A stretch of 64,000 bases of DNA from Candidatus Melainabacteria bacterium 17Bon1m (GCA_032128875.1 JAVLKG010000018.1:12935-76934); one strand, 5' to 3'. Shown: positions 28,605-47,935, numbered from the stretch's first letter. Notes: generated by a model not told the origin, from the letters alone. Program-made: numbers and translations.

Positions 28605-28839
28605 GTTCTCTCTACGCATGTTTGCAAGGTGGCTTGTGACTGTATAAGCCGCATCGCTGTCGTTCCGCAAATCTCCCGGACGCGTGAGCGCCCGGGGGCG
28701 ACAAAATTCTCGATTTCCTTTTTCTCTTTTGCTGTACTAGGCTATGCCGTAAAGCGCTTTTAAAGGTTTTGCTATACGTTTTTCCTCTATATGCGCGCCG
28801 TTTGCTGCGGTAATGCTCGATTATTCGATGGGTGCGACG

Positions 28840-28873
28840 TTTGACGTTAATTTGATGTGGACGGGTGCATCAT
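28840..28873 (+). promoter_or_regulatory. TTTGAY direct-repeat promoter
   Basis: TTTGAC-gttaa-TTTGAT-N11-CATCAT upstream of ORF 28980. Confidence 0.7.
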
Positions 28874-28979
28874 GACATCACCCAGCACGCACACAAATTT
28901 CAACCGCAGGCAAGACACCGTGCGCAGTGTGGTCTGTCTGCATCGATTCTAAAAACCTGCATTACCGGAGGGTTCAGCC

Positions 28980-30041
28980 ATGGGAGTAGCACACTTCGAA
29001 CAACCACAGCATCCAGAAGCTGTTACAAGCCACGGCGGCAATGGCGGCGGCAGCGGAATGCCGGACATGTCCAGAGATAGAGTTGATAGAAGACCAAATT
29101 CCAATAGTTCTGACAATGTATTGCCTTCTCTCTCGATAGACGGGCTGGACGGTGTGAAAGGACAGAACGTACTGTCAGAGACTAAGTATTCCAATGGACA
29201 AAAAGACTATGAGCTAGGCAACGGCAACCATGTCACTGAGTTTGCTCCCGGTGACCAGGAAGACAGAGTGGCCGAGGTGACTTCCCAGGACGGTCATGTC
29301 CACCAAACAAAGTATCGGGATGGACATGTAGAAAAAAACGATGATCGCCCGATCGATCAATCTTCTGATGAACATGGCGGCGACAATGGTCGGCAAAACA
29401 CTGATCATCGCGGAGATGGTTCGCGCCAAGGCGACCAACAGGCAGACGCTGGAGCGCATAGTCAGTCCGGAGAAGGAGGAGCGGACAACCAGGAGGAAGA
29501 AATCCGTAATCCGGACGGCAGCAAAATACGCAGCGGTCCCGACGGCGTGCGCAAAGAGTTTCCTGATGGCAAAGCCGAAATAACTGCGCCTGACGGCACC
29601 GTTACTATCAGATATCCGGAAGAAACGCACAACAAGGACGGCTCTGTTTCTAAGACTTACCCATATGACGGTCGTAAAGAAACCAGCGGCTATGGAGACG
29701 ATGATCCCAGGGACAGCCAGACAGAGTATCCCAACGGCAGAAAAGAAATTCACTACAAGAACGGCAACTCTGAAATTCAATTCGAGCCCAATAACAAAGA
29801 AGGAAAAGTTTCTGAGGTGACTGTCGACGGCGGCAAGACCGCAATTACTAAGTTCAAGGACGGACATGTCGAGAAGGAAGACGCGAACGGCGATATCACG
29901 AAGAGCTATCCGCCGAAAGATGGCAAGCCTGGCTATAACGTGGTCATCTCAAAAGATGCTCAAGGAAATACGACTGTAACCCGAGAGCCCTATGAAGAGA
30001 TTGCAACCGATCCAAAGAAATACGAAGAGAAAGCATCTTAG
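28980..30041 (+). CDS. Hydrophilic beta-hairpin repeat protein
   Basis: GGAGG RBS; repeated (P/K)DG/NG turns with short strands; no signal peptide. Confidence 0.8.
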   Translation: MGVAHFEQPQHPEAVTSHGGNGGGSGMPDMSRDRVDRRPNSNSSDNVLPSLSIDGLDGVKGQNVLSETKYSNGQKDYELGNGNHVTEFAPGDQEDRVAEVTSQDGHVHQTKYRDGHVEKNDDRPIDQSSDEHGGDNGRQNTDHRGDGSRQGDQQADAGAHSQSGEGGADNQEEEIRNPDGSKIRSGPDGVRKEFPDGKAEITAPDGTVTIRYPEETHNKDGSVSKTYPYDGRKETSGYGDDDPRDSQTEYPNGRKEIHYKNGNSEIQFEPNNKEGKVSEVTVDGGKTAITKFKDGHVEKEDANGDITKSYPPKDGKPGYNVVISKDAQGNTTVTREPYEEIATDPKKYEEKAS

Positions 30042-30075
30042 TTTGACTTGAATTTGACGCAGAGCGACATATAGT
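30042..30075 (+). promoter_or_regulatory. TTTGAY direct-repeat promoter
   Basis: TTTGAC-ttgaa-TTTGAC-N11-TATAGT, starting immediately after the stop codon of 28980. Confidence 0.7.
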
Positions 30076-30080
30076 TGCTC

Positions 30081-30175
30081 TATTGATTGTGAGTCTTTCT
30101 TGAACTTTGTCACCGAATATGGTGTCTAAATTAATGCGGCACGACTGAGTTTTCTCGGTCGTGCTGTTTGTTGTT
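30081..30175 (+). ncRNA. Candidate small RNA
   Basis: Promoter motif upstream; terminator gcggcacgactgag/ctcggtcgtgctgt + T/G tail at 30136-30175; no ORF. Confidence 0.4.
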
Positions 30176-30715
30176 ATGCCACTGAATACGGTGTTGTGAT
30201 TAGCGCTGCTAGCGATTCCGTGCGATGCTCCGAAAGCCCCTAATAAAAGCCATCGAGGTCGCCCATTTGTAGGTGCAATGACCTTGTCGTGTAGTGATTT
30301 ATAGCTGGCGTGGCAATGCCATTGTGTATGGTGTCACTACGTATGTGCTAGCTGAGCAAAATACTCATTGACATAAATTCGAAAAATATTTTCGATGATT
30401 TCGGCGAGATCTTTTCTCGCTATTGTTTGTATGTACCCCTAAAAGCTCGCCAGTTGAGTCTTCCTACGTTTGCGCCTGCCTGATTTGGCGGTTTGTATGC
30501 GCATATTTGTGAGCTTGCATTCATGGGATGCAGATCAATAAGTTGGAATTATCCTTCAACATTTTCTTTACCTGGAGCTTTAAAGCGCAAGCAAACATAG
30601 ACCAATTCCTGACCACGCAATATTGCACGCAGTAGTTTGCTGCATAGGTTCCGACCGCACTTGTAGCGGTTGTATCTTCAACTCTGTTCGGCTTGTTAGA
30701 AACAGGAGAACTCAA

Positions 30716-32290
30716 ATGAACGCAGCTACGCAAATTGTCCGCACCTTGCAAAAGGGTGATGTTCAGACCTTCAAGTTCAAGGAGTATGTACGCTGGGATA
30801 ATCGAACCGGTCAGAAGATTCTCGGAATCAGGGGGGTGCATCCGGCCGCACGCAAGGTGGTTTTCGTCGCCCAGACTGCGACCGTGCAGCCGCGCCATGG
30901 CGACATCCTGCTCTGCAAAGTGATTAAGGATACGGCGCCTGCCGACCCGAAGAGGGGCGCTTTGATTGTTGCTCCTGTCGTCGGTGAAAACAAGGCGAAT
31001 TGCCAGCTTAAAGAGCAGAGAGTTCAAGTTCGGCTTCACTTCGACATCTCTGAGGCCAAGGTCGCCAAAGGCGAGCCGATTGTTCTGGTTGCAGTGAAGA
31101 CCAGATGCGGTGCGAAAGTAACGGCAAGAAGTGATTTCGAGATAAGAGCGAAGTCTGACTTGCCCGCCGACTGGCCTCTCTGGGTCAATCAGAAGATTGA
31201 AGACCATTTGAATCTGATTGCCGTCTCTCGCGCCAATTGGCTCAAGAAGAAGTCCGAGGTCTGCGATTGGTTCGAAGTGAAGAACCTGAGCAACCTTGAC
31301 ACCGGTGAGTTGCTCATTAGAGTCGTCCACAAGAAAAGGGTCGGCTTTGATGAATCAACGAATCTCGAGGTCATTTCCATTCGCTCTCGGGGCGACATTC
31401 CCCTGGAATGGACGGACCAGACCAAGAAGAACGTGCTGGATGCGATCGAGAAGACTGAGGCGGCTTACGCTCAGGCGAAGAAGGTCGAATGGTCGGTGGT
31501 TTGGTCCGGCACTGCGCCGGATCGGTTTCCCCGAGTAATCGGGCGCGAGAAGCGGAGTGGGAAGGTGACCGCTTCTTTCGTCATAACTTCGCCCGACCAG
31601 CTAAACGACGGGCTGTTGGCGTCGGTCAAAAGCATCGCTCAGGCGATGCTTACCAGAGCCGAGGCGATCAATGCCGAAGCTCGCGCCAAGCTCGAACGCA
31701 GGAGGTTGATCGACGAGCTGAAGCATGACGCCGATGGCAAGACGCGCTTCCAGTGGGCTGGGGACTATATGACCGATGGAAGGCTTTGGTTCCCCAGGCG
31801 CAGACCGGAAGGTCTCGAGTGGCGGAAATTCCCTATTGCTGCGGTTCCGGCTGGGTATTGGGAAACCTTCCTCCAGGGGCTGGAAGGAAAGATCATGGAA
31901 GAGCTCCTTGATTATTGCACGCAAGAGAGCTGGCGCCGCCCGCTCGCCGAGCGTGTGAAACTGACAGAACGTCAGGAGGAGATCAAACGCACGATCAAGT
32001 CGGAGATCGAGCGGATGGTCAAAGAAAAGCAGATGTGGCAGGGGGATGGAGTTGACGCTATTGCCGTCGGCAAATGCGTTGTCTTTATTGTCGAGCGCAA
32101 TGGGCAATGTCTCTATGTGGTCGACAATCCCGGTCCCGGTGCCATTTACGTCTTCCGTTCAAAGGAAGGCGCTCACAGGCTGGCGCGCGAGGAAGTAACG
32201 CGTCAGGCTCTGATCAAGAGCGGAGCGATTCGCATTCTTCACATGCCTGGCTGGCAATTGAAGCTTGCAGAAACGATTGCCAGCACTTGA
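30716..32290 (+). CDS. Hypothetical protein
   Basis: ~524 aa ORF, AGGAG RBS; no recognisable motif. Confidence 0.8.
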   Translation: MNAATQIVRTLQKGDVQTFKFKEYVRWDNRTGQKILGIRGVHPAARKVVFVAQTATVQPRHGDILLCKVIKDTAPADPKRGALIVAPVVGENKANCQLKEQRVQVRLHFDISEAKVAKGEPIVLVAVKTRCGAKVTARSDFEIRAKSDLPADWPLWVNQKIEDHLNLIAVSRANWLKKKSEVCDWFEVKNLSNLDTGELLIRVVHKKRVGFDESTNLEVISIRSRGDIPLEWTDQTKKNVLDAIEKTEAAYAQAKKVEWSVVWSGTAPDRFPRVIGREKRSGKVTASFVITSPDQLNDGLLASVKSIAQAMLTRAEAINAEARAKLERRRLIDELKHDADGKTRFQWAGDYMTDGRLWFPRRRPEGLEWRKFPIAAVPAGYWETFLQGLEGKIMEELLDYCTQESWRRPLAERVKLTERQEEIKRTIKSEIERMVKEKQMWQGDGVDAIAVGKCVVFIVERNGQCLYVVDNPGPGAIYVFRSKEGAHRLAREEVTRQALIKSGAIRILHMPGWQLKLAETIAST

Positions 32291-32433
32291 TCCTCGCAGG
32301 CGGCGGGAAGCATTTCCTGCCGCCTCGCCTGTAGTCCCTTGAGAATGCATTTGCTGCAAGGTAATTCGGCCTTGCGGATTTCCAGTAATGTCGGCCGAAC
32401 ACGAGCCACGCTCGCTAAAAAAGGAATAGAAAA

Positions 32434-33402
32434 ATGGACACTAATGCAATCATGATGGCGATCGCCATCCTCCTCTTCGTGCTCTTTCCCATGCTCAGGA
32501 AGGCGCTGGGAGCCGTGAAGGCGAAATTCGAACAGGGCGAGCTCAGCAAGATTCATGAGACTACCGGTTATTCACGCCGAGCACGCAAGATGAAGGGCTC
32601 CGATGGCCGCACCAAGCGCCGGAACCTTTTCAAAAAGGCTACCGAGAAGCCTGCAGCAGTCATCACTTTTGACGGCAACTTACATGCCGAAGGGCACGAT
32701 TTGTTCGGACAGCTTGCCGATGAAGTGGTGGAGAACGTCGACGCTCTTTCGGAAGTCGTCGTTTGCGTCACGTCGCCCGGCGGCAGCGTGCCCCCGTACG
32801 GTCTGATGTATGCTCACATGGAGCGCATGCGTAATGCTGGCGTTTCTGTCACGGCCTGCATCGACCAGTTCGGTGCTTCAGGCGGCTATCTTACTGTTGC
32901 GCCGGCGACGAAGATTGTCGCTGCGCCGCTGGCGATGATAGGCAGCATAGGAGTCGCTGCCCACCTGCTCAACTATAGTCGTTTGCTGGAATGGATAGGC
33001 ATTGATTCGGTGACTCTGGCTGCGGGCAAGCATAAGCGCATGCTCACGGCCACCGACCCCGTCACCGAGGAAGGGCGTGACTTCACCACTAAGAAATTGG
33101 AGGTGATTCACCGCATCTTCATCAATGCGGTGAGAAAATATCGCCCTAACGTCTGCGAGGAGATTTGCGACGGCGATAGCTGGTCGGCGCAAGAAAGCGT
33201 GGAAAAAGGCTTGGGTTTGGTCGACGAGCTGGCTTCCAGCCTCGAGTATCTGTCGGCTCTGAATTACGAGAGGGATCTCGTTTTCCTCTCGGCCAAGAAG
33301 TCCAAATTCGCGACTCCCTTCTTTAATTACACTACCGGCATTGCGATGAACATTGTCGATCGTGTGATTGCCAGGATTTCTGGTCCTAATTTTGGTCTAT
33401 GA
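32434..33402 (+). CDS. sohB: S49 peptidase, SohB-like
   Basis: N-terminal TM, SPGGSVPPYGL, GASGGY catalytic Ser, GSIGV, AGKHKR. Confidence 0.88.
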   Translation: MDTNAIMMAIAILLFVLFPMLRKALGAVKAKFEQGELSKIHETTGYSRRARKMKGSDGRTKRRNLFKKATEKPAAVITFDGNLHAEGHDLFGQLADEVVENVDALSEVVVCVTSPGGSVPPYGLMYAHMERMRNAGVSVTACIDQFGASGGYLTVAPATKIVAAPLAMIGSIGVAAHLLNYSRLLEWIGIDSVTLAAGKHKRMLTATDPVTEEGRDFTTKKLEVIHRIFINAVRKYRPNVCEEICDGDSWSAQESVEKGLGLVDELASSLEYLSALNYERDLVFLSAKKSKFATPFFNYTTGIAMNIVDRVIARISGPNFGL

Positions 33403-33558
33403 CCAAGCCACTGATGGTAGTGGCACGTACTGCTCGCGCCGACGGACAATCTGCCGGCGCGAGCACAGGTAATCAGTTGTGGAGGTCGTCTGAAATGAGC
33501 TCCACGACTGCCGATATTTGTGAGCCAGTCCCCTGGCTCCTAGAAAGAGGATAAGATT

Positions 33559-34137
33559 ATGGTTATCACCTTCCAAAGCGTCTTCCGCCTGCTGTCTGAG
33601 TGGACGTGGACCGCCATGTCTGTGCTGTTTAGCATTTTCGTTTACGGATGGCTATTCGGCTTCGGTGTCGCTATTCTCATTGTGTATCTCATGGTCGTAC
33701 AAGCGATGGGGCACTATCTGACGGCCAGACGAATGAAGTTGGAGGTAAGACCTCCAGAAATCATGCCCTTCTCTACGCAGATCCGTGTAAAATGCACACC
33801 TGAGTCGGTAGAAAAAGTTGCATGGACGCTGATTGCTGGTCCCATGCTGGGTGGTCTGGCAGCCTTTGCCTTATTGCCGATCTACTTCTGGGTGGGAGAT
33901 AAGATGTGGCTTTGGCTGGCTGCAGTCGGATTCGTCATCAATCTGATGGACTTGCTTCCATTCATCTCGCTCAAAGGCGATCGCCTTGTAAGTATTGTGT
34001 GGAGTAGGTCCGAGGGACCAGCAGAGCACAATTTGAGCGGGCAATGGAAAGTGCTGATCGGTAAAGTACACATCGTTCTCTGTGTGCTTCTAGCCTCGTC
34101 AATGTTTTGGGCGGCCTGGTTGCTGCCTATTCATTGA
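33559..34137 (+). CDS. M50/site-2-protease-like membrane protein, catalytically degenerate
   Basis: QAMGH in place of HExGH; IAGP retained; DLLPFISLKGD in place of NLLPxxPLDGG. Confidence 0.7.
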   Translation: MVITFQSVFRLLSEWTWTAMSVLFSIFVYGWLFGFGVAILIVYLMVVQAMGHYLTARRMKLEVRPPEIMPFSTQIRVKCTPESVEKVAWTLIAGPMLGGLAAFALLPIYFWVGDKMWLWLAAVGFVINLMDLLPFISLKGDRLVSIVWSRSEGPAEHNLSGQWKVLIGKVHIVLCVLLASSMFWAAWLLPIH

Positions 34138-34231
34138 ATAAGAGCCTTGCGAATGAGCAGTAAGAAGGCGGAAGCGCTGCCTTCTTATGTCAATCCAAAT
34201 CAAAATCAAAATCCGAATCGAGGAGTATCAA

Positions 34232-34480
34232 ATGACCAAGACTACTATCATGTCCCCTTCTGCTGCCGCGCAGCTGGCATGCGTCGACGAGCTGGATGCG
34301 GCTCGTATTCGCCTCAACGGCGCTATCTCAAGGAGTGGAGGTCGCGCATTCACATACGCTGCTACTATCTTTCAGTCGAGAGTCGGCGACATTTTGATCA
34401 GCGAACTGCGCAGTGCCGGCTGGAAAGTTCGGTTTGTTCCGGACAGCCGCGACGGGAGTTATTACGAGATCAGCCCCTGA
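34232..34480 (+). CDS. Hypothetical protein
   Basis: GAGGAG RBS; 82 aa. Confidence 0.65.
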   Translation: MTKTTIMSPSAAAQLACVDELDAARIRLNGAISRSGGRAFTYAATIFQSRVGDILISELRSAGWKVRFVPDSRDGSYYEISP

Positions 34481-35065
34481 TGTCGGGCGATTCGCTGCGA
34501 AGCACATTTGAACAAGTGTGTCAGTAGTTCATCTGCATTGGGGAGAGTTCGAACTTTCATGCTCTCCCCAAGAACAAGGACAGTCAGTTTAGGCGCCTGC
34601 TTGTAAGCCTTCTCTAAGAGGACGAGTTCGCTCGCCAGGATAAGCGTCGGCGGTCAAAAGCTCCAGCCCTGGCCGGAGCTTTCACCATTTTTGTTTCGCC
34701 AGTGTTTTATGCCTTCGAGCGTCCCTTATTTTCTCGAGCTTGGTGATACTGTGTGAGATAGTAAGACGTTCTGTAGGGAAAACATTCGACATTGTACTTG
34801 ACGGTGCAATGGTTTCTCTTGTGCTGAGCAAACTGGCAAAGCTGAACATTTTACGCTCTTACAGTCCTCTGATTGAGGAAGGTGCGCCAAAGGCTGCTTC
34901 TCTTGTTGACGCGTAATTCAGTGGTAGATCGCTGGTTTTCTAGTACTATCAGCGGTGGCGAGTTGTTGAATGGAAAGCTTATTGAGACTGGACCTAATTG
35001 GCTGCGCCGCTCGCGCCTTGCCCAGCCGCGACCCGGTGAAATAGTCCTTGGCTGCCAGAGTTAAG

Positions 35066-35126
35066 GAGGCTGAGGCGTATCCACCGCCTCAGCCTCGCCG
35101 GGCCGTTTTCGTTTTGGTTTCTTTTG
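35066..35126. terminator. Terminator hairpin at the 3' end of 35128-35979
   Basis: gaggctgaggcg/cgcctcagcctc stem; T-rich tract follows on the plus strand. Confidence 0.65.
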
Positions 35127-35127
35127 C

Positions 35128-35979
35128 CTATTCAAGTCTGATTCGGCTTATCAGGGAATCTCTGGGTACAACATAACCTTCACCTATTTGCGCGCGATAC
35201 AGTGTTGAGCCCAAACCTATTTCGGAATAAGGTCCGATGAATGATTTGTTTGCCGTAACGTTTGCTTCGATTTTGGCGTGATGAGCGACTTTCGTTCGAC
35301 CAGTAAGTGTGACGAACGAATTCAAGGTCGAATCCGTTCCGACAATCACATGGTGGCCGATCCGCGAACTTGGACCTACTGTTGAACCTCTTGCGATGTG
35401 TGCTCTCGAGCCAATTTCGACATCGTTGAAAACCTTCGCTTTCGTGCCAATTCTTACTTCGTCGGAAATTAGTGTGCGGTCTGCAATAAAAACTCTGGAG
35501 CCGACTGAGACACCTTTGCCTATTTGAACTTTGTCGCCAATTAGATTGTTTGCCTGCAGGGTAGTTTGCTCACCAATTGCGACATCATGACCAATCGTGG
35601 TTCCTTCGCCGATTCGTACCCCAGCCTCAGCCCTGAAATTGGAAACCCCCGAACCTATTTTTACGGGTGCCAGCTCGGTACCGGCAATCTTCGAAGGTCC
35701 GTTGATTTCAAAGCCAGAACCAATCATGGCATTGTTTATTTCAATGCCACCACCTTTCAGTTTTCCCGATTCGAGAATAGAATTTGTGACTTTGGGAATT
35801 TCATCAAACTCTATATATGCGCCCGTCTGGTTCATTGCGATTGCCTTTATTTGCCCAGCCAGGCTGTCGAGTTTCGCAATCAATGTTGGAGATATTTCCT
35901 CTATGAGGCGAGTGGCTGCGGCCGCTTCGCCGGCGGTGGCTTTGATGACTGTGTGAGGTAACTCTAAAGGAATGGGCAT
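35128..35979 (-). CDS. Left-handed beta-helix (hexapeptide repeat) protein
   Basis: Continuous [IV]GxxxX repeats (VRIGEG, TTIGHD, VAIGEQ...). Confidence 0.88.
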   Translation of the reverse strand: MPIPLELPHTVIKATAGEAAAATRLIEEISPTLIAKLDSLAGQIKAIAMNQTGAYIEFDEIPKVTNSILESGKLKGGGIEINNAMIGSGFEINGPSKIAGTELAPVKIGSGVSNFRAEAGVRIGEGTTIGHDVAIGEQTTLQANNLIGDKVQIGKGVSVGSRVFIADRTLISDEVRIGTKAKVFNDVEIGSRAHIARGSTVGPSSRIGHHVIVGTDSTLNSFVTLTGRTKVAHHAKIEANVTANKSFIGPYSEIGLGSTLYRAQIGEGYVVPRDSLISRIRLE

Positions 35980-36064
35980 TTCAATGTGTCCTCTTTTTAA
36001 CAGCTGCCGGCCTGCGCTTTAGCCGGTGAAATTAGTGGCGATTTGAAAAATCACCGTACGCTAT

Positions 36065-36098
36065 ATATAAGTCGTTTGATCATCAAATGAGTGTAAAA
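36065..36098 (-). promoter_or_regulatory. Degenerate TTTGAY direct-repeat promoter
   Basis: Minus strand TTTTAC-actca-TTTGAT-N11-TTATAT upstream of the beta-helix gene. Confidence 0.45.
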
Positions 36099-36345
36099 TT
36101 TCCTTGCCTCTTCCTGCGTACTTTCCGCATGTACAGCGTGTTTTCCGCTAATTGGTTTGACGCAAATATGATGGCGGTCATTCCATGATTGCGCAAACGA
36201 AGTTACATGCGAAGATAGAACGATGTTCCAATTGTTCAGTCTGGTTATCGCGACTGTAGTGGCATCTCTAATAGTCTTTGGTCGAAGAGTACTTTTATAG
36301 AAAATTGTGATTCGAAGCCGGTAGAAGTTTCTTGGCACTAATCCA

Positions 36346-36379
36346 TTTGACTCTAATTTGACGTTGTCGATGTTTCAAT
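36346..36379 (+). promoter_or_regulatory. TTTGAY direct-repeat promoter
   Basis: TTTGAC-tctaa-TTTGAC-N11-TTCAAT upstream of ORF 36473. Confidence 0.7.
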
Positions 36380-36472
36380 GCTGGCAGTCCGAACCCCCGC
36401 CAACATCAAAGGTTTGCCGTATCCAATCTGATTTGCGGTATGGACATATCCTTCGATTCTTGAGGTTATCTT

Positions 36473-36742
36473 ATGTCACTTCATCTCGATACCCCGGAAA
36501 GACTTTCTCAATCCTCTTCGTTCGCAGAAGCGGCTCATGCTGCAAGAAGTGCTCTTTCGGAAGAGTTCTTTCATCACGCCATCGGCGCCGGTGCAGAAAG
36601 AACTCGCGTTGCTCAAGCGGAGGAGCCGGGTGTCATACATCTGCCGGCGCCCGAACCGGCGCCTGAGGTATACCATGGGGTCAAGGATGGGAAACCCTTT
36701 ACCGTAACGATCGAGCCCTGGGACCCTCAGGCGGAGAAGTGA
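36473..36742 (+). CDS. Small hypothetical protein
   Basis: GAGG RBS; 89 aa; bracketed by promoter motifs. Confidence 0.65.
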   Translation: MSLHLDTPERLSQSSSFAEAAHAARSALSEEFFHHAIGAGAERTRVAQAEEPGVIHLPAPEPAPEVYHGVKDGKPFTVTIEPWDPQAEK

Positions 36743-36762
36743 TAGTTTATGCCCGCCGAAAA

Positions 36763-36796
36763 TTTGATGAGTTTTTGATACTGGCACACTTATGTT
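36763..36796 (+). promoter_or_regulatory. TTTGAY direct-repeat promoter
   Basis: TTTGAT-gagtt-TTTGAT-N11-TATGTT. Confidence 0.65.
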
Positions 36797-36801
36797 GAAA
36801 G

Positions 36802-36896
36802 AGCACCAAACGTTTGTGCTTGCCAGGCATAGACAATCGCATTGACAATTTGCCAGGGAGAAGATCGAGACTCTGATCTCGATCTTCTCCTTTTGG
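36802..36896 (+). ncRNA. Candidate small RNA
   Basis: Promoter motif upstream; 14-bp stem ggagaagatcgaga/tctcgatcttctcc + TTTT at 36857-36894. Confidence 0.4.
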
Positions 36897-37484
36897 TTGG
36901 TATTGTATATGGTGCTGTGATTGGCGTGGTTCGCGCGAGCTGGCTTCGTTAGCAAAGCCTTTTAAACAGTAGCTTTTCTCTTCGTTTGGTGACGGAGTGG
37001 ATGTTATTCTCTAGGGCTTGGAATGCTGGCACCGCTGTGCCATTGTTGGTGGTGTCAAACGACATTCGCTAGCGTGGCCACCCTGATTGTAGCTGTCCTG
37101 GTTTGTTTTAATTTCCGCTCGCATCAGAGCAATGCCCTTCAGCCTCGCCCAAAAGGCTGCCTCTTAAGTACTTTTGAGATTGCTCTGGGTTTCTTCTTCA
37201 GCGCTATTTCTTAGATTTGACGATTTGCATTTCTGATGGCAGCTCATTTAGGTTCAGGTTATTGATCATTTCCTTTTCCGCTTCGCCATTTAAATAACTC
37301 AAGAGATTGTCGATTCCACGAAGACCGGCTTAAGCACAGCAAAATTGCTGTGCCTGGTTAATTCCAATTTGATTTTCCACCTGTTGCAGTTTTGCTATCG
37401 GTAACTGCACACAGGATCAAGGCTGGTCTAGCTAAAACCAAAAGCGAGAGCAATGTGCTCTTGCGCAAACGAAAGGGAAACAAC

Positions 37485-38129
37485 ATGCAAAGACCAATTT
37501 TCCCCTGGGCGGTGGCACTGGCAGGACTTGTTTCTGCATTGCTGTTGCCTTTTGCGGATGTCTATCCGCTCGTGCCTGCTTATGTAAGTCAGGCATTTGC
37601 CACAGAGCATCGGTATATCCCCGAGGCTGTAGGCATGTTTTTCGCATACATGTTTCAGCATGAGAACACGAACTTGCACTGGGTAATGAACTTCATCTTC
37701 CTTTTCTGGTTCGGCACAGTCCTCGAGAATGCGATTGGTCATCTTCGCATGCTTGCATTTATTCTCGGGACGGGCGTATTTGCTGGTCTGGCTCACTATT
37801 TTGCCGACCCTGGACTGACCATTCCTGTTGTCGGCCTGTCGGGGGTGATCATTGCGGTAATCGCCGTGCTCACTGTTGCTACTCCGCGCTTTGCTCTGGT
37901 GAGTGTTCCTTCTACAGAACTTACTATCGTGCGCATGTGGCATTTCGGCTTGCTTGTGCTCGGCACGCAGTTCTATCACTTCTTGCAAATGGCTCCGGGG
38001 GACAAAACTGCTTATTGGATTCATTTCGGCGGCGTTGTCGCCGGACTTGCGCTGTGGTTCTTCTGGCTTCGTCAGCGCATAGACGACTTCAAGCACAGTC
38101 CTGTCGGCGAGCACTTGCTGCAGGGCTGA
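37485..38129 (+). CDS. Rhomboid intramembrane serine protease (S54)
   Basis: HWVMN motif, GLSG catalytic Ser, AYWIHFGG catalytic His; ~6 TMs. Confidence 0.9.
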   Translation: MQRPIFPWAVALAGLVSALLLPFADVYPLVPAYVSQAFATEHRYIPEAVGMFFAYMFQHENTNLHWVMNFIFLFWFGTVLENAIGHLRMLAFILGTGVFAGLAHYFADPGLTIPVVGLSGVIIAVIAVLTVATPRFALVSVPSTELTIVRMWHFGLLVLGTQFYHFLQMAPGDKTAYWIHFGGVVAGLALWFFWLRQRIDDFKHSPVGEHLLQG

Positions 38130-38174
38130 ATATGCACTTTCCCTAAACCTTCCTGAATAGAAGGAGTAAGAAAT

Positions 38175-39356
38175 ATGAATGCGATATCGAATCTTCGGCT
38201 GCGCTCGGCTGGCTCGCTTGCTCTGGCATGTGGTGCCGGTGTGAAAGATGCTTTCGAGCATCCTTTCGGCCAGTTGCTCTTCTACAGCTGGCTTGTGATG
38301 GTGCTGCCGCATGCATATTGGCCGGTGATGGCGGCGATTGTTTTTGCCGTCATGATCCACGAGGTGGGCCACTGGGTGGTGGCAAGAACCTGCGGTTATC
38401 CGATCGATACTTTCTCGATCGGCATTCCGGCTGGACGTGTTCTTGAATTGGGTCGCTTAGGCGGCACGATGATTCAGATTACGCCCTACTGGTTTATGGG
38501 TGGTTACGTTACTTTCGAGCCGACCGCCGCGAGCGTGATGAATACTCCGGTCTGGAAGCGTGCTTGCGTTCTGCTCGCCGGCATCGCCTTCAATCTTCTC
38601 GGGGCTGTTGGTCTCTATTCGGCAAGCGCCTATATCGTCGGTCATGAAGTCTTTCGCGATGTGCCGGTCGTGAGTCGCATCAATCAGACTGGTTATGCCG
38701 ACAAGGCCGGCATGCTTTCCGGTGATACAGTGCTTGCGGTCAACGGGATCGCCACAGGCGGCGCCAGGCAAGTGATCGTTGCGATTGGGCAGCGCACTTC
38801 AGAAGCTGTTCGCTTCGACGTGCTGCGTGCGGGGCGTTCGCTGGAGATAACTGCTCATGCGCCGCTCAGTCAGAGGCTTGGCATTGAGGTTGGTTTTGTC
38901 GAGAGGCATCCGATCGATTTGGCGAGCGCCGTGTCGAGAGGGGCGTCATCCGTCTGGAAAATGCTTTCTATGACAGGACAGCTTATCTGGACGTCCATCG
39001 TCGGAGCCGATGAAGCAGGGACTGCTTCCGGCAAATCGGCGAAGCAAGTTGGTTTTGAGGTCCACGGAGTGGTCGGGTTCATGCAATTCGCTGCCGGGTC
39101 TTTCTCGAAAGGTTGGGCTTCATTCCTGGCGATTGTGGCTGCGTTCAACATCAACTTGGCTATTTTGAACCTGCTGCCGATACCGCTCCTTGACGGCGGT
39201 CATGTCTTCTTTCTTGTGATTGAGAAGTTGCGGGGCCGACCCGTGGCTGTCGAAACGCAGATGAAGATCATGAAAGTCTGCATGTGGGGACTGCTTGCCC
39301 TGGCACTCTTCGGACTGTACAACGACCTTGCTCATCCATTGTCCGGAATTCACTGA
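38175..39356 (+). CDS. rseP: RseP-like site-2 zinc metalloprotease (M50) with PDZ
   Basis: HEVGH, FSIG, GGYV, AGIAFN, PDZ (AGMLSGDTVLAVNG), NLLPIPLLDGG. Confidence 0.9.
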   Translation: MNAISNLRLRSAGSLALACGAGVKDAFEHPFGQLLFYSWLVMVLPHAYWPVMAAIVFAVMIHEVGHWVVARTCGYPIDTFSIGIPAGRVLELGRLGGTMIQITPYWFMGGYVTFEPTAASVMNTPVWKRACVLLAGIAFNLLGAVGLYSASAYIVGHEVFRDVPVVSRINQTGYADKAGMLSGDTVLAVNGIATGGARQVIVAIGQRTSEAVRFDVLRAGRSLEITAHAPLSQRLGIEVGFVERHPIDLASAVSRGASSVWKMLSMTGQLIWTSIVGADEAGTASGKSAKQVGFEVHGVVGFMQFAAGSFSKGWASFLAIVAAFNINLAILNLLPIPLLDGGHVFFLVIEKLRGRPVAVETQMKIMKVCMWGLLALALFGLYNDLAHPLSGIH

Positions 39357-39467
39357 AGGGCATGAGAGTGCCTGGGGGTGTCCGCCCTTTCATTATGAGC
39401 CGGGCGGGCGCTCATTTTTGCAATAAGAGAAGATCACGCGTCTTCTCTACAGAAAAGGAGACTGACT

Positions 39468-40310
39468 TTGTCAAAAGAAGAGAAAAAGCCACTGAGCGGA
39501 AAAACGCTCTTCATCACTGGTGCCAGTCGCGGCATCGGACTCGAAATTGGAAAACGTGCCGCTGCCGATGGTGCCAACGTCGTGGTTGCCGCTAAATCCG
39601 AGAGCGAGAATCCGAAGCTTCCCGGCACCATCTACACGGCCGCCAAGGAGATTGAAGATGCCGGCGGCACCGCACTGGCAGTAAAATGCGACGTGCGTAA
39701 CGAGGACGAGATCATTGCCGCAATTGAGGAGGCGATTAAGACCTTCGGCGGGATCGACATTCTCGTCAATAACGCTTCGGCGCTCTCCATGACCTCTACG
39801 GAAAAGACTGAGCTGAAGCGCTTTCGTCTGATGCATGAGGTCAACGGCGCCGGTTCTTTCTTCATGGCCAAGCACGCCATTCCCCACCTGCGCAAGGCTG
39901 CGAACCCGCACATCCTTACCATGTCGCCGCCGCTTTCGCAGATGTCCGGTAAGTGGCTGGGACCACAACTGGCTTATGCTATGTCGAAGTACTCGATGAG
40001 CATGGTCACAATGGGGCTTGCTGCTGAGCTGTCTCCTGATGGGATCGCAGCCAATTCGCTCTGGCCCAAAACCCTCATCGATACGGCTGCTGTTCGTCAT
40101 TTGCCGGGCGGTGAAGAACTTGTGAAACACGCGCGCTCCGCTCGTATCGTCGCGGACGCTGCATACCATATTCTTACGCGCTCTGCCAAGGAGTGCACCG
40201 GCCAGTTCTTCGTCGACGAGGATGTTCTGAGAGAGTCCGGCATCGAGGATCTCGAGCAGTACGCCGTGGTGACGGGCAACAAGTTGCACGCCGACATCTT
40301 CCTGGATTAA
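39468..40310 (+). CDS. Short-chain dehydrogenase, HSDL2-like
   Basis: TGASRGIG, NPKLPGTIYTAA, VNNAS, YAMSK, NSLWP. Confidence 0.93.
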   Translation: MSKEEKKPLSGKTLFITGASRGIGLEIGKRAAADGANVVVAAKSESENPKLPGTIYTAAKEIEDAGGTALAVKCDVRNEDEIIAAIEEAIKTFGGIDILVNNASALSMTSTEKTELKRFRLMHEVNGAGSFFMAKHAIPHLRKAANPHILTMSPPLSQMSGKWLGPQLAYAMSKYSMSMVTMGLAAELSPDGIAANSLWPKTLIDTAAVRHLPGGEELVKHARSARIVADAAYHILTRSAKECTGQFFVDEDVLRESGIEDLEQYAVVTGNKLHADIFLD

Positions 40311-40334
40311 GGCTGCGGTGTGATAGCTCGAACT

Positions 40335-40372
40335 GTGTATGCGCGAGAAATCGCGCATACACTTTCTACTTC
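40335..40372 (+). terminator. Intrinsic terminator
   Basis: gtgtatgcgcga-GAAA-tcgcgcatacac + pyrimidine tail. Confidence 0.8.
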
Positions 40373-40677
40373 TTCTAGCTTTCCTTCGTCACCGGTATAC
40401 TAGACAAGGTGGTAGGTCGTTAGTCTTCCGCCCGGGTATCAAGTGAAGTTTGGCGAATACGATGGAAAGCCTGTGCAAATCAAGGTCTATCCGCCTGGTC
40501 TTGCACGTGGTGTTGATTCGCCAGGCACAGTCGGTTATAGCACCGGGGTGGGTCTCGGGCGTGGAAGCAAGATGGTTATTGCTCCTCATATGGAATGACC
40601 ACAAAGGCTTCTTGAGCATAGAACAGGTAAACGGCCGGTAACGCTTCGCCGGCCTTCTTTGCTAATTCCGTAATACG

Positions 40678-40711
40678 TTTGACGAAAATTTGACGGGCAA
40701 ATGACTAGCAT
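40678..40711 (+). promoter_or_regulatory. TTTGAY direct-repeat promoter
   Basis: TTTGAC-gaaaa-TTTGAC-N11-TAGCAT upstream of the SLT gene. Confidence 0.72.
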
Positions 40712-40752
40712 TACAGTTGAGCTTCCAGCCGCCTTACCAGAGAGTTTCCAAT

Positions 40753-41853
40753 ATGACTGAATTGCATTCGCGTTCCTCTTTGGAGCGCCGCCATCCCCAT
40801 GAAGATCGTGATTCTGCAAATTCTCATGCCCGAGGCTGGGCTGATGTTTACAGCAGCAGAATAGAAAGACCCAATCCTTCCGTTTACCAGCCTGGACAGT
40901 CCGCGCACGAGTTTGTCCAGAAGCATTTGCATGGAACGGAACTGTATGATTCCGCCGAGACCAAAGGCGGGACGAACCGTTCGCACGGTGCCGCTGGCGG
41001 AGACAAAGGTCGCTCAGACAGAGCAGGCGGAAGCGAGCGCTCGGCTTTGGGGGCGCCCGATGATACCCAAAGGAAAAGGGAAGTACATGAAACTGGCGCC
41101 AAGATAGCCGACCATCTCAAGAAAGATCCTCATGACTTCAAATACGTATTTGGCGAGCTTGATGCATTGCACAAAAAGGACCCCGCACACCTGGGCGAAA
41201 ATCTGCGCGAAGTAAATGATGCCTTGCATGAGAAGGGGCTGCTCAAAGGAATGTCGATTGTTCGCGACAATAGAGATGGGCATGAAGGTTGGGCTGTCGT
41301 AGCTGAAGATAAGAGCAACGTAAATCCCAAACATAACAGAACGATGGTCAGCACCAGTCATGAAGCCCATGAGTCCTCGACATTGAAGCATCATTATTCA
41401 AGCATGCATTACAGACGCGGGCACTATAACGGTTGGCATCAATCCGTCGAAGGCGGTGGTGGCGGTGATGGTGGCTTCGATAAACACGCCGTTGGCGGGC
41501 ATGTTCCACCGGGTGCACGTCGCGAATTGATTGAAAAGGCTCTCCAACTGGCGGGTGTGCCGGTGACAGAACAAAATATCTCCGCTGTAAATAAAATCGT
41601 CACGCGAGAGAGCGGATGGAATCCGAACATTACAAACAACTGGGACATCAACGCCAAAAGAGGTCATCCCTCAACGGGTTTGATGCAGACGATACCCTCT
41701 ACGTTCTCTCGATATGCGCTGCCCGGAATGAACAACAATATCCATGATCCGCTCTCTAATCTGGTTGCAGGAATACGCTACGCAGAGGCGCGATATGGAC
41801 GGCACGGTCTGTCGGGTGTCGCCAAAGTAGCGAGCCGTCCGGGCGGATACTAA
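40753..41853 (+). CDS. Protein with C-terminal lytic transglycosylase (SLT) domain
   Basis: RESGWNP catalytic Glu, NNWDINAKRGHPSTGLMQTIPSTF, AGIRY..ARYG. Confidence 0.9.
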   Translation: MTELHSRSSLERRHPHEDRDSANSHARGWADVYSSRIERPNPSVYQPGQSAHEFVQKHLHGTELYDSAETKGGTNRSHGAAGGDKGRSDRAGGSERSALGAPDDTQRKREVHETGAKIADHLKKDPHDFKYVFGELDALHKKDPAHLGENLREVNDALHEKGLLKGMSIVRDNRDGHEGWAVVAEDKSNVNPKHNRTMVSTSHEAHESSTLKHHYSSMHYRRGHYNGWHQSVEGGGGGDGGFDKHAVGGHVPPGARRELIEKALQLAGVPVTEQNISAVNKIVTRESGWNPNITNNWDINAKRGHPSTGLMQTIPSTFSRYALPGMNNNIHDPLSNLVAGIRYAEARYGRHGLSGVAKVASRPGGY

Positions 41854-41901
41854 ATGGAAAAAGCAGAAATTGCTCACTCCTTGAAAGATTCGCTGCATCC
41901 A

Positions 41902-41935
41902 TTTGACGAGAAATTGATATCGCCATTCGTATAAC
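41902..41935 (+). promoter_or_regulatory. TTTGAY direct-repeat promoter
   Basis: TTTGAC-gagaa-ATTGAT-N11-TATAAC. Confidence 0.6.
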
Positions 41936-41940
41936 TTGTA

Positions 41941-42027
41941 CAGAGCTTATGTTTAACGCGACAGTGGCTCTCAGAGGACGAATAAAAAGGTGTCGAAGCT
42001 GGAGCCGGCTAGTCCGCTCCAGTTTTT
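41941..42027 (+). ncRNA. Candidate small RNA (or 26-codon peptide mRNA)
   Basis: Promoter motif upstream; ctggagc/gctccag stem + TTTTT on the plus strand. Confidence 0.35.
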
Positions 42028-42032
42028 GACGT

Positions 42033-42725
42033 TTAGTCCTTCTTCTTCTTCTTCTTTCCAGAAGGCATGCGATAACCCACTCTCGGAATATTTTCGATAA
42101 CTGCGCATGCGCTGTCGTCGATCTTGTATCTAATTCGCTTCAAGGAAGAACGCAGTGCCTCTCCCGTGGCATCGCTTTCGGAGTGCCAAACGCGCTCCAG
42201 CAGGGCGTTATTACTGAATATTTGATCAGGATGCCGCATGAAAAATTCAAGAAGAGCAAAGTCTATTGGAAGCAGGTGGATCTCTGTGCCTGCTTTGGAA
42301 ACCTTCCTGGTGGATGGATCGAGGACCAAATCTTTTACTTGCAAGATGTTTGCCGTTACCACCTGAGGGCGACGAAGAAGTGCGCGCAAGCGCGCTGACA
42401 ACTCACGCAAATCAAAGGGTTTGGTCAAATAATCATCTGCTCCTGCGTCCAGCCCCGATTCTTTATCGGTGATGGTACTGCGCGCGGTGACAAAGAGGAT
42501 CGGTGTCTTGCCGCCTCTTTCTCTAAACTCTTTGAGGATATTCATTCCCGACAGACCCGGCAATGACCAATCTAGAATTATCAAGTCGTAAGTGCAGCAG
42601 AGGAGTCGGTCCAGCCCTTCTCTGCCATCAACGAAGTGCTCGACAAGATGCTGTTCGGATTTGAGAAACTCGCAGACCGTGAAGCTCAAGTCTGCATCAT
42701 CTTCTACTAACAATATTTTTGCCAT
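42033..42725 (-). CDS. OmpR/PhoB-family response regulator
   Basis: LLVEDD, LDWSLP, GADDYLTKPF, winged-helix (ENIPRVGY). Confidence 0.95.
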   Translation of the reverse strand: MAKILLVEDDADLSFTVCEFLKSEQHLVEHFVDGREGLDRLLCCTYDLIILDWSLPGLSGMNILKEFRERGGKTPILFVTARSTITDKESGLDAGADDYLTKPFDLRELSARLRALLRRPQVVTANILQVKDLVLDPSTRKVSKAGTEIHLLPIDFALLEFFMRHPDQIFSNNALLERVWHSESDATGEALRSSLKRIRYKIDDSACAVIENIPRVGYRMPSGKKKKKKD

Positions 42726-42921
42726 GTGGTCTTTCTGGCGCGCGGGACGATACAAAATCATAAACCATCTTGGGCTAACTTCCATGACGCAAATAGCCTC
42801 CCAGGGGGAGGCTATTTGTGGGCTCTGTCGTTAGGCGGGGGAAAAACTTTTGATTTCGAGTAGTGGGCGCACGTTTTTGCTGGGAAGACAGCCGTGCGCC
42901 CGCTCTCGGTTTTTGCTCAAG

Positions 42922-44019
42922 CTAATCGATATCGCGATTTCCTGTCGGATAGAAGGTGGCTTCGTCACTGTGTCCTGGTCTCAGGTTTAGATTAGGTCTT
43001 AAAGTTCGATTTCCGTAGGTGTCTATACTCGGTCCGAAATCGAGAGTTTGATCGTCGAGTTTCAATCCTACGCCTGCAGCTGCGGAGGAATTTTCACCGA
43101 CATTGAAGTGTGCTCCTGACCTGACGCCGAAAGCGTCCGCAACGCCGGTGTTCGCTCCAGTGTAAGCATTAAAACCTTGTGGTCCTATGCCGGCGCCAGC
43201 ATCAGCTTGCACATCTACGGGCCAGGCGCGTCCTCTGACATCGCCGCTGACACCGGTATTCTTGCCCAGGCTGGCACCAAAGTCCGCGTCTCCGTTAACC
43301 AGGTCGAAGAAATTGGCTCCTGCTCCCACTTCACTATGGATGCCATCTTTTTCAAATCCGAGATTTGCATTCGCTCTTGCGTGAAGCGGTCCGCCATAAG
43401 GCATGAATTCCGCGTTTACGCCAGTGTTCTTTCCGAGTGAAACTTCCGTACTGGCAATGCCGACATTTACTCCTGTTTCCAAAGAGCCGTCTCGCACTCC
43501 GAGTTTGACGATACCTAAATCCAGTCCCTGAAATTCGCCTCTGTCTCTGTTGTAGGCTGCATCATATGCTGGAGAATTCGGTGCTTCTGGCGCAAAATTA
43601 CTGTGAGGTGCATAACCAGGATGAGGGATTTCGACGGGTTTTAGATCATACTGAGTTCTTGTATCTAAATATTCAGCTCTCAATTTGCTTTCTGCTTCTC
43701 GCTGCCGAGCCTCGGCATCTATTTCGGCGTCTAATTCGGCTTTTAGTGCAGCTTCTTTCTGCCTTTGCATTTCCTTCTCGCGTTCTTCTTTCGCGTGTTT
43801 TTGCGCGGCTTCTTCGGCGTCGACCTCTTTCATTGCCTTCGACCAAGCCTTAGGATCTTTTTTCGAGATCTTTTCCCTTTGGTCTAATGCCCAGTCCCAA
43901 GCTGCTGGATCATCGCTTTTCCAGGCGTCCCAGGCGGCATGCGCAGACTGGATGTGTTGTTCGGTGTGCTTGTTTCCTGCGTGACTTGTTCTTCTTTCTG
44001 TGGTGGAATGTGCGTCCAT
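42922..44019 (-). CDS. Hypothetical protein: coiled coil plus Gly-rich beta-repeat C-terminus
   Basis: 365 aa, AAGGA RBS; charged helix then repeated AxAG/GVxA strands. Confidence 0.8.
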   Translation of the reverse strand: MDAHSTTERRTSHAGNKHTEQHIQSAHAAWDAWKSDDPAAWDWALDQREKISKKDPKAWSKAMKEVDAEEAAQKHAKEEREKEMQRQKEAALKAELDAEIDAEARQREAESKLRAEYLDTRTQYDLKPVEIPHPGYAPHSNFAPEAPNSPAYDAAYNRDRGEFQGLDLGIVKLGVRDGSLETGVNVGIASTEVSLGKNTGVNAEFMPYGGPLHARANANLGFEKDGIHSEVGAGANFFDLVNGDADFGASLGKNTGVSGDVRGRAWPVDVQADAGAGIGPQGFNAYTGANTGVADAFGVRSGAHFNVGENSSAAAGVGLKLDDQTLDFGPSIDTYGNRTLRPNLNLRPGHSDEATFYPTGNRDID

Positions 44020-44201
44020 AAAGCTGGTTCCTTGCGGCTCGAGAGGGAGATGACATAAGCCTTACGAGTAAGCGACTCTTCGTGCGGCGCTTTGCTTACA
44101 ACCATTTTTCCGGCAACTTATGGCGGATTTGTGGCGATGCAAAACATAGTCCACGCAAGCCTTTGGGGGATTTGCCCCTGGCTTTCGCCGCCTGTAAAAA
44201 C

Positions 44202-46040: not shown

Positions 46041-46179
46041 TCTGGAATTCGATGGTTGCGGACAGACGTGAATATTGTATCCCGAAGAATTGTAGACATT
46101 AGGAGACGGTCAAACGTGGACAAGGCGGTCGATAATGTAAAGCCTCACGGTGACTGGATAATCGGCTGGCTCTGATGGA

Positions 46180-46213
46180 TTTGATGAGAATTTGACTGGG
46201 GCGCGTGCACCAT
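46180..46213 (+). promoter_or_regulatory. TTTGAY direct-repeat promoter
   Basis: TTTGAT-gagaa-TTTGAC-N11-CACCAT upstream of ORF 46286. Confidence 0.7.
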
Positions 46214-47911: not shown

Positions 47912-47935
47912 GTTAGCTCGAGAACCCAACCCTCC

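Follow-up and report, generated by a model that had tools for sequence, protein, structure and literature searches.

Candidate small RNA genes in a predicted OmpR/PhoB-type regulon of Candidatus Melainabacteria bacterium 17Bon1m

Genes for small regulatory RNAs (sRNAs) that are directly activated by a two-component regulator alongside protein genes include OmrA/B (OmpR), MgrR (PhoP) and RprA (Rcs). sRNAs with a promoter of their own at the 3′ end of a messenger RNA (mRNA), whose terminator they share, are represented by DapZ and MicL of enterobacteria, the latter belonging to the sigma E stress regulon (PMC9438474). PhoS of Bacillus velezensis and B. subtilis lies within phoR's 3′ untranslated region (UTR) and has its own promoter, which is stimulated by the OmpR/PhoB-family regulator PhoP (PMC11522486). 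We analysed a 64,000-nucleotide (nt) stretch of the Candidatus Melainabacteria bacterium 17Bon1m assembly (G000:C18:12935-76934; hereafter the window, with positions counted from its first letter), in which a first-pass annotation had noticed, three times over, a promoter-like box, a gene, a second box and a short terminated stretch without an open reading frame (ORF). The best supported reading, to which we give a probability of roughly 0.55, is that these three stretches are independent, regulator-driven sRNA genes sharing a terminator with the mRNA upstream.

Whereas OmrA/B, MgrR and RprA are free-standing intergenic genes with known targets, the units described here abut apparently co-regulated genes and their predicted regulon is clustered in one island. 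The promoters of DapZ and MicL lie inside the coding sequence, those of the present units 0–48 nt behind the stop codon; unlike in DapZ and MicL, a single type of activator box would here drive both the upstream mRNA and the RNA; and DapZ and MicL depend on Hfq, which was not found in the 17Bon1m genome (PMC9438474). The CpxP/CpxQ pair in the same source resembles the present layout in that one stress-regulon transcript gives both a protein and a 3′-end small RNA, but CpxQ, by the general description in that source, arises by mRNA processing, whereas a separate promoter is predicted here (PMC9438474). For PhoS the primary 5′ end has been mapped and the promoter proven with a reporter, its seed is conserved and its targets are known, whereas the present units are predictions from sequence; PhoS also sits behind the operon of its own regulator and has an extended -10 promoter, in contrast to three unrelated RNAs behind three structural genes of a regulon, each with a direct-repeat box promoter (PMC11522486). 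sRNAs with their own promoter at an mRNA 3′ end are thus already known, and what is new here is the unstudied lineage and the combination of three unrelated RNAs, one box and one compact island. We know of no regulatory RNA or mapped regulon in the non-photosynthetic relatives of cyanobacteria, and none was found among the titles and abstract openings listed for papers that deal with this lineage together with transcriptome work.

The 17Bon1m assembly (G000 in the comparisons below) comprises 7.55 Mb in 35 contigs and is 93% complete; the window lies on a contig of 77 kb. Twelve other genomes of the genus served for comparison (genomes being labelled with G numbers), mainly between the clades G000/G003/G008 and G005/G006 (G005 being 82% complete). 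The conservation described below is what selection on promoters and on structured RNAs would be expected to leave, but these genomes are few and kin rather than independent samples, so that it is not proof.

A direct-repeat box in the place of the -35 element

The box is a 17-nt motif, TTTGAY-N5-TTTGAY, with two TTTGAY half-sites as direct repeats at a period of 11 bp. Allowing one mismatch at most, it occurs 14 times in the window against 1.66 ± 1.32 expected (100 shuffles, none of which reached 14). Genome-wide there are 17 exact boxes (about 4.3 expected from base composition), nine of them on the 77-kb contig and all of these on the + strand. A position matrix trained on nine island sites gave 29–39 for the training sites, 25.0 and 19.4 for two island sites left out of training, and no more than 20.9 for any non-training site off the island. 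Enrichment and confinement together thus define a local regulon extending from about 7145 to 50738, which is predicted to consist of about a dozen box promoters in an island of approximately 46 kb on one contig. Box orthologues in the relatives keep the half-sites and vary in the 5-nt spacer. On contig C7, outside the window, about seven 11-bp units repeated in tandem (G000 C7:232683-232732) all carry a TTTGAY half-site and produce four exact box matches that overlap one another; they may be an array of several binding sites or a microsatellite that arose by chance.

A -10-like hexamer begins exactly 11 nt 3′ of the box. At this position (+11) at least four of the six letters of TATAAT were matched in 9 of the 12 + strand boxes (counted by hand; about 4% by chance at a fixed position). 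The hexamers at +11, with boxes named by their first position, are as follows.

Box 7145: CCACCG
Box 8331: TATAAA
Box 28840: CATCAT (28868-28873)
Box 30042: TATAGT (30070-30075)
Box 36156: CATGAT
Box 36346: TTCAAT
Box 36763: TATGTT (36791-36796)
Box 40678: TAGCAT
Box 41902: TATAAC (41930-41935)
Box 46180: CACCAT
Box 47994: TATTAT
Box 50422: TACCTT

The best hexamers of the regulon are those of the three promoters that lie behind genes and head the candidate RNAs (TATAGT, TATGTT and TATAAC), and these post-gene boxes have the same box–11 nt–hexamer layout as the boxes in front of genes. In three to five related genomes the halves and the -10 of the post-gene boxes are kept, while the 5-nt, 11-nt and stop-to-box spacers vary. 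PhoB and other OmpR-family activators use two half-sites one helical turn apart, in place of the -35 element, and by analogy the layout found here is the geometry of OmpR/PhoB-type activator promoters. The Pho-box promoters of the Escherichia coli PhoB regulon similarly consist of two direct repeats with an 11-bp period, which replace the -35 element about 10 nt upstream of the -10; they differ from the present box in sequence, TTTGAY not being known as a pho box half-site, and in that the regulator, signal and binding of the present box are predictions.

Three terminated units behind box-driven genes

All three instances of the box–gene–box–terminator architecture were recovered, with an ORF-less stretch of about 85–95 nt each. 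Their features, all on the + strand and with predicted RNA starts, are listed below (aa, amino acids).

28840-28873 (+): promoter of the repeat-protein gene (box 28840-28856, -10 CATCAT at 28868-28873), kept in G003 and G008
28980-30041 (+): repeat-protein gene (gene 1), 353 aa, hydrophilic, Pfam Tcp10_C (E 5.8e-11)
30042-30075 (+): unit 1 promoter (box 30042-30058, 11-nt spacer, -10 TATAGT at 30070-30075), TAnnnT kept in G003, G008 and G006
30082-30177 (+): unit 1 predicted RNA, ~95 nt, with a small hairpin and a terminator (stem 30136-30167 plus T tail)
36346-36379 (+): promoter of the 89-aa gene (box 36346-36362, -10 TTCAAT)
36473-36742 (+): 89-aa gene, hydrophilic, no family match
36763-36796 (+): unit 2 promoter (box 36763-36779, 11-nt spacer, -10 TATGTT at 36791-36796)
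36803-36898 (+): unit 2 predicted RNA, ~95 nt, with a terminator (stem 36857-36890 plus TTTTGGTT)
40678-40711 (+): promoter of the SLT gene (box 40678-40694, -10 TAGCAT)
40753-41853 (+): SLT gene, 366 aa, hydrophilic, C-terminal lytic transglycosylase domain (Pfam SLT, E 4.5e-10; SLT segments of PHROG tape-measure proteins)
41902-41935 (+): unit 3 promoter (box 41902-41918, one mismatch; 11-nt spacer; -10 TATAAC at 41930-41935)
41942-42027 (+): unit 3 predicted RNA, ~86 nt, with a 5′ hairpin and a terminator (41999-42022 plus TTTTT)

The distance from the -10 to the terminator end, given in the annotation as about 90–100 nt, is about 95–105 nt in each unit. The intervening RNA bodies are unrelated, as it had also stated: blastn of the intergenic regions against the genome returned self-hits only, with no cross-hits. 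The unit 1 box starts immediately 3′ of the 353-aa gene's stop codon (0 nt), the unit 2 box 20 nt behind that of the 89-aa gene and the unit 3 box 48 nt behind that of the SLT gene. In none of the three did a consensus scan place a T-tailed hairpin in the interval from stop codon to box, so that mRNA and short RNA would share one terminator. The units contain no conserved ORF, and the short ATG frames of units 1 and 3 are not kept as coding: the nine-codon frame of unit 1 shows only non-synonymous changes in the relatives and, by eye, no ribosome-binding site, and the 11-codon frame of unit 3 has lost its ATG in G003 and G008.

Compared with shuffled sequences, the window stretches of units 1, 2 and 3 fold with z values of -4.98, -5.54 and -2.53 respectively. 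The unit 1 terminator ranked first in a consensus terminator scan (20 kb); the unit is kept in G003 and G008, with compensatory changes in 3 of 20 pairs (four genomes). Unit 2 is also kept in G003 and G008, its body differing between 17Bon1m and G008 at 4 of 59 positions, with the changes clustered in the terminator loop, compared with 76% identity over the locus as a whole. Unit 3 follows the SLT orthologues (73–95% identity) of G003, G008, G005 and G006, all four of which are succeeded by a box, the 11-nt distance, a -10 (TATAAC or TATAAA) and a terminator. Across these five genomes the stop-to-box spacer is variable, as are both spacers inside the promoter (5 nt and 11 nt). G005 and G006 form the 5′ hairpin from a different sequence, and of the 30 pairs predicted, 4 carry compensatory changes. 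A covariance model built on unit 3 matched 5 of the 13 genus genomes (its five training sequences), always behind SLT; within 17Bon1m it found unit 3 and nothing else, and it had no match in 40 other genomes sampled from the family. Unit 3 remains behind SLT in G005 and G006 despite different downstream content. In G005 (C101, ~17404-17560; loci L004/L023) only a C-terminal remnant of the response regulator RR-B lies behind unit 3, immediately followed by the next box, and the block of RR-B, an unknown gene and the kinase HK-B present in 17Bon1m is missing there. The SLT homologues of G002 and G018 have neither box nor RNA behind the gene. Searched with Rfam at gathering thresholds, the window gave no match.

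The RNA material over 28700-48600 comprised assembled contigs from three libraries of one sample (X3–X5) and from one lake metatranscriptome (X20). The X3–X5 contigs have flat depth across the whole of 28700-48600 and carry no information on starts, ends, strand or level; X20 contributed eight short pieces to the same stretch, none of them on the three units. Breaks of the X3–X5 contigs at 36863-36906 (the unit 2 hairpin) and 47944, both inside terminator hairpins and with adapter letters at the breaks, are read as an assembly effect of inverted repeats rather than as RNA ends.

That the stretches are ordinary 3′ UTRs, the post-gene boxes being chance occurrences or mere binding sites lacking promoter activity, is barely credible. 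The RNA contigs give no internal start, as this would require, but such contigs carry no start information. A -10-like hexamer at a fixed 11 nt is kept in the relatives while the spacers vary, and in G006 unit 1 stands without any upstream gene. Moreover, with about four chance boxes expected in 7.55 Mb, three within 48 nt behind the stop codons of box-driven genes are not credible by chance.

The G006 copy of unit 1 (contig C933) is more distant, with its own box, TATCTT at +11 and a homologous small hairpin and terminator. It stands behind a single box, the 353-aa gene being absent at that place; this is the empty site that the annotation had suggested looking for. Both G005 and G006 carry a homologue of the 353-aa gene at another site, where it is fused into an operon. 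To the left of the first 17Bon1m box, the flank matched the left flank of the G006 box with a local score of 26 (16.7 ± 2.3 in shuffles, 2 of 300 reaching 26), and the right flank of the second 17Bon1m box matched its right flank with a score of 45 (17.3 ± 2.5; 0 of 300), whereas the crossed comparisons stayed at noise level. An 11-mer is placed exactly 49 nt upstream of the box in both genomes. The single-box allele thus indicates that unit 1 is an autonomous module and not the 3′ UTR of the 353-aa gene. In sequence comparison it shows an indel of that gene bounded by boxes, which insertion or deletion between direct repeats could equally have produced.

A second indel involves the locus of an approximately 95-aa gene (p95) that has a box in G003, G008 and G006. 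In G006 a box and about 60 nt precede the hairpin terminator of this locus, and G003 and G008 share the terminator and the downstream block without them. Box units are moreover arranged in a different order in G000/G003/G008 than in G005/G006. The annotation had offered, as an alternative, that the same-orientation boxes mark insertion units, and the single-box allele and the p95 indel lend this partial backing, with one clear case. In its full form, with the boxes as ends of insertion units and the box as a preferred recombination site for promoter-bearing cassettes, the proposal is improbable. It draws on the G006 single box against the 17Bon1m box–gene–box with matching outer flanks and crossed flanks at noise, on the shared 11-mer, on the changed unit order and on the stop codon of the 353-aa gene directly abutting a box. 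Yet deletion between direct repeats would yield the same picture with no dedicated mechanism, the polarity of the single clear case can be read either way, the boxes are direct repeats and not attC-like inverted repeats, no integrase or transposase domain occurs among the 47 ORFs of the window scanned with Pfam, and the conserved -10 and terminated RNA are left unexplained. Integron cassettes were rejected in view of the absence of an integrase among these 47 ORFs, the direct-repeat nature of the boxes and the presence of a promoter in each unit. Insertion units are compatible with, not opposed to, the units being sRNA genes.

A more speculative picture, which we hold to be distinctly doubtful, is an island of promoter-headed modules exchanged at the binding site of the regulator, the box serving as both switch and seam in a cassette capture that dispenses with an integrase. 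It is no less doubtful that genes or RNA 5′ segments, inserted or deleted between boxes, would then land in front of older, conserved modules of terminator and downstream block, and that a two-component regulon would gain and lose members in this way. The single-box unit 1 of G006, the p95 box with its 5′-segment indel and the box-unit order of G005 and G006 are in line with such exchange.

Among the window's 12 + strand boxes, only 3 have a terminated unit lacking an ORF behind them, and most of the others precede ordinary ORFs; the architecture is therefore a dense tandem array and not a rule of gene–RNA partnership. Of the proposal that each gene is paired with a co-regulated, independently promoted sRNA, the independent promotion finds support, the post-gene boxes being promoter-like and conserved, and the obligatory pairing does not hold. 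The box genes 46286-47911, 48059-50407 and 50493-50738 have no RNA, nor do the SLT homologues of G002 and G018, and unit 1 occurs alone in G006. Gene 1 is not a complete orphan as had been thought, since its 353-aa product carries Pfam Tcp10_C repeats. The suggested antitoxin-like role was not borne out either, the neighbours not being small toxins and no antisense complementarity standing out. A type I toxin–antitoxin arrangement was likewise rejected: the partners are hydrophilic proteins of 353, 89 and 366 aa, and the RNAs are sense, lie behind the genes and show no marked complementarity.

Small RNAs, leaders or by-products

If the units are sRNA genes, a phosphorylated OmpR/PhoB-family regulator would bind the box in the -35 place, 11 nt upstream of a weak -10, and recruit RNA polymerase. 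Most promoters of the regulon would serve genes that encode hydrophilic proteins without a known family, along with a lytic transglycosylase, an esterase/protease and some small proteins, and boxes 30042, 36763 and 41902 would drive independent non-coding units of ~85–95 nt ending at strong intrinsic terminators. The upstream mRNA would run through the small RNA to the shared terminator, and RNA of identical sequence could then be produced in two ways, by primary transcription and as the 3′ end of the mRNA. The RNAs would most likely act in trans on mRNAs, and the juxtaposition of gene and RNA would come from tight tandem packing together with insertion or deletion of box-headed units. Binding by the regulator, its identity, the transcription starts and the accumulation and action of the RNAs are all inferred in this scheme.

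Behind the terminators of units 1 and 2 lie conserved blocks.

30178-30350 (+): two blocks behind the unit 1 terminator, GCCAC..GGTG..GCTGCTAGCG, and TGGCAATGCCATTGTGTATGGTGTCAC..GCTAGC
36900-37070 (+): blocks behind the unit 2 terminator, homologous to those of unit 1

The first block reads GCCAC-N8-GTGG (GCCAC..GGTG) followed by GCGCTGCGCTA or GCTAGC, and about 130 nt further on a small hairpin and a second block follow, TGCCATTGT (TTGT)..TGGTGTCA..GCTAGC. The blocks are found ~10–100 nt behind the terminators or hairpins of units 1 and 2, of the leader headed by box 8331 and of similar units in G006, G009 and G010. A related block occurs at 8490-8720 within the 8331 leader, giving three copies in 17Bon1m, and the relatives with related blocks are G006 (L049 on C933 and L045 on C1129), G009 (L034 on C81) and G010 (L033 on C27). 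An nhmmer profile of the three copies found only those three in the genome, and simple block patterns were not enriched genome-wide (one pattern had 7 matches against about 25 estimated by chance). The blocks may be additional promoters or a site bound by a protein; by eye, neither a sigma-54 site nor a sigma-70 promoter suited every copy. 17Bon1m and G006 are colinear over the first ~600 nt behind the box, with no difference in length, and ~520 nt of this lie 3′ of the terminator. The operons downstream encode a 524-aa protein, SppA and an M50-like protein (unit 1), a rhomboid, an RseP-like protein and an SDR protein (unit 2) and an FtsH-like protein (8331).

These surroundings bear on the possibility that the units act in cis, as leaders whose terminators gate the downstream same-strand operons or by transcription that interferes with them, the short RNA being a by-product. 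Such a role is unlikely, though it has a good deal to draw on: in both clades synteny between unit 1 and the 524-aa gene downstream is kept while the upstream gene differs, the ~520 nt behind the terminator are colinear and equally long in 17Bon1m and G006, a conserved block follows within ~10 nt of the terminator in units 1 and 2 and in the similar units of G006, G009 and G010, the consensus scan showed no sigma-70-like promoter between the terminators and the downstream genes, and box 8331 heads a comparably long leader before the FtsH-like operon. Unit 3, however, is followed by a convergent gene (RR-B) and cannot therefore be a leader; neither terminator showed, in the folds, a 5′ arm with an alternative antiterminator partner, no Rfam family was matched, and the terminators lie 540–585 nt before the next start codon, far beyond usual attenuators. 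Membership of the attenuator or riboswitch leader classes was rejected on account of the convergent gene at unit 3, the lack of an Rfam match and the lack of a competing fold.

It is clearly unlikely that the short transcripts are functionless, with box modules being gained, lost and shuffled and landing before existing terminators. The p95 terminator and downstream element, which have a box and 5′ segment ahead of them in G006 and lack both in G003 and G008, would suit this explanation, as would the failure of the 5′ halves of units 1 and 3 to align between clades, the signs of island decay (a 115-bp deletion in a box-driven gene of 17Bon1m and the RR-B remnant of G005) and the ~6 kb of extra box-driven genes in G003. 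Against it, the promoter and structure of unit 3 are kept in five genomes spanning 73–95% SLT identity, the unit 2 body is far better conserved than its surroundings, the hexamers of the RNA-type promoters are the best of the regulon and compensatory changes preserve the hairpins.

Several observations weigh against the units being sRNA genes. The RNA data, being assembled contigs, show even coverage throughout and no transcript 5′ or 3′ ends. When the three RNA bodies were folded as duplexes with 13 local 5′ regions (25 shuffles each), the results stayed within noise, with a best z of -2.4, and neither Hfq nor CsrA was found in the 93%-complete genome. The 5′ halves of units 1 and 3 do not align between the two clades, ~15 nt and the terminator being all that is kept, and an sRNA acting through a seed would not usually look like this. 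Behind units 1 and 2, conserved blocks and protease operons lie on the same strand, an arrangement that also fits a cis role. The p95 indel implies that a box promoter can simply sit before a pre-existing terminator. As for the presumed activator, no orthologue of the response regulator RR-A (see below) was found in G005 (82% complete) despite its clustered boxes, and the assignment of RR-A to the box is correlative, coming from kin genomes.

Comparative sequence alone is sufficient here to define a putative binding site with the promoter geometry that goes with it, three candidate small RNAs and a compact regulon of some dozen units, among them a cell-wall hydrolase, an esterase/protease and several proteins without a known family. 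Should the RNAs be real, the island would offer a simple test system in which one box and one likely regulator give mRNA and sRNA outputs next to each other; with it one could study, in an uncultured lineage, how a two-component system divides its output into proteins and RNAs. The single-box allele suggests that gene–sRNA neighbourhoods can arise by insertion beside an existing sRNA gene (the polarity in this instance being readable either way), and cautions that not every RNA behind a gene is derived from its 3′ UTR.

The candidate regulator and the rest of the island

Three OmpR-family regulators with kinases were identified in the window by Pfam (1634-5318, 42033-46040 and 61344-63952), two of which were considered as regulators of the box.

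1634-4618 (+): histidine kinase HK-A, 994 aa, Pfam HisKA and HATPase_c, adjoining RR-A
4641-5318 (-): RR-A, OmpR/PhoB-family response regulator, Pfam Response_reg and Trans_reg_C
42033-42785 (-): RR-B, OmpR/PhoB-family response regulator, convergent on unit 3, the weaker candidate
44202-46040 (-): HK-B, HAMP-PAS histidine kinase

RR-A is, by its distribution, the likelier regulator of the box, rather than RR-B beside unit 3. Its orthologues (78–89% identity) are present in 6 of the 12 other genus genomes (G003, G008, G006, G010, G002 and G009), and those of G009 (C81), G003 (C107) and G008 (C24) lie 149–224 nt from a box. Close orthologues of RR-B were limited to G003, G008, G006 and G004, the last having no match to box plus -10; this distribution weakens RR-B as a candidate by adjacency to unit 3. 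RR-A and RR-B share 43% identity, with differences in the presumed recognition region.

The remaining boxes of the island and the genes they precede are as follows.

7145-7161 (+): box without a -10 at +11 (GATAGT at +16), orthologue of the RR-A-side box in G003 and G008
8331-8347 (+): box with -10 TATAAA, then hairpins and a ~520-nt conserved leader, a 124-aa gene (8894-9268) and an FtsH-like gene
36082-36098 (-): box (one mismatch) in front of the hexapeptide-transferase gene 35128-35979
36156-36300 (+): box 36156-36172 (one mismatch) and a 25-codon hydrophobic ORF (36223-36300)
46180-46196 (+): box before the 541-aa gene 46286-47911, no family assigned, followed by its own terminator
47994-48010 (+): box before 48059-50407, a 782-aa esterase-like plus trypsin-like protein
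50422-50438 (+): box (one mismatch) before a conserved 81-codon ORF (50493-50738), an ordinary small gene

The orthologues of box 7145 in G003 and G008 are 224 nt in front of RR-A, a 469-aa gene (5532-6941) intervening in 17Bon1m, and this box may be an autoregulatory site of the regulator. Box 8331 was considered as the head of a terminated unit and rejected, its hairpins lacking a good T run and not being kept as terminators in G008. Box 50422 was rejected as a fourth sRNA unit in view of the 81-codon ORF behind it, which has no known family, is kept in G003, G005 and G006 and falls below the 120-aa ORF cut-off. The 25-codon ORF at 36223-36300, examined as a possible toxin, is the truncated form of a ~77-aa membrane/Cys protein that is intact in G003 and G008 and has suffered a 115-bp deletion in 17Bon1m.

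Judged from such changes in gene content and order, the island appears to be modular and in flux. Units of the same design with unrelated RNA were found at G006:C1129 and G009:C81. About 6 kb in G003 (C49:20700-26000; L025), situated between unit 1 and the locus of the 89-aa gene, are absent from 17Bon1m and include a divergent box pair, a ~95-aa gene and two longer genes (656 and 468 aa).

Searching the box-driven proteins by sequence against PHROGs, NCBIfam and the PDB added only generic SLT, esterase and protease matches. By eye, the proteins encoded at 28980-30041, 40753-41853, 46286-47911 and 48059-50407 are hydrophilic, without an N-terminal signal peptide and with long N-terminal parts of low complexity, and two of these four have cell-wall or protein-degrading domains; such proteins may be exported by a non-Sec route. 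The region 9779-39356 is rich in envelope and membrane proteases, namely an FtsH-like AAA/M41 protein, M13, S41 with PDZ, S49 (SppA-like), two M50 and a rhomboid, several of which lie downstream of box-headed leaders. Outside the box regulon, a 324-aa ORF at 56011-56985 (-) matches PF07737 (E 7e-13), the Pfam family for the anthrax lethal factor N- and C-terminal domain.

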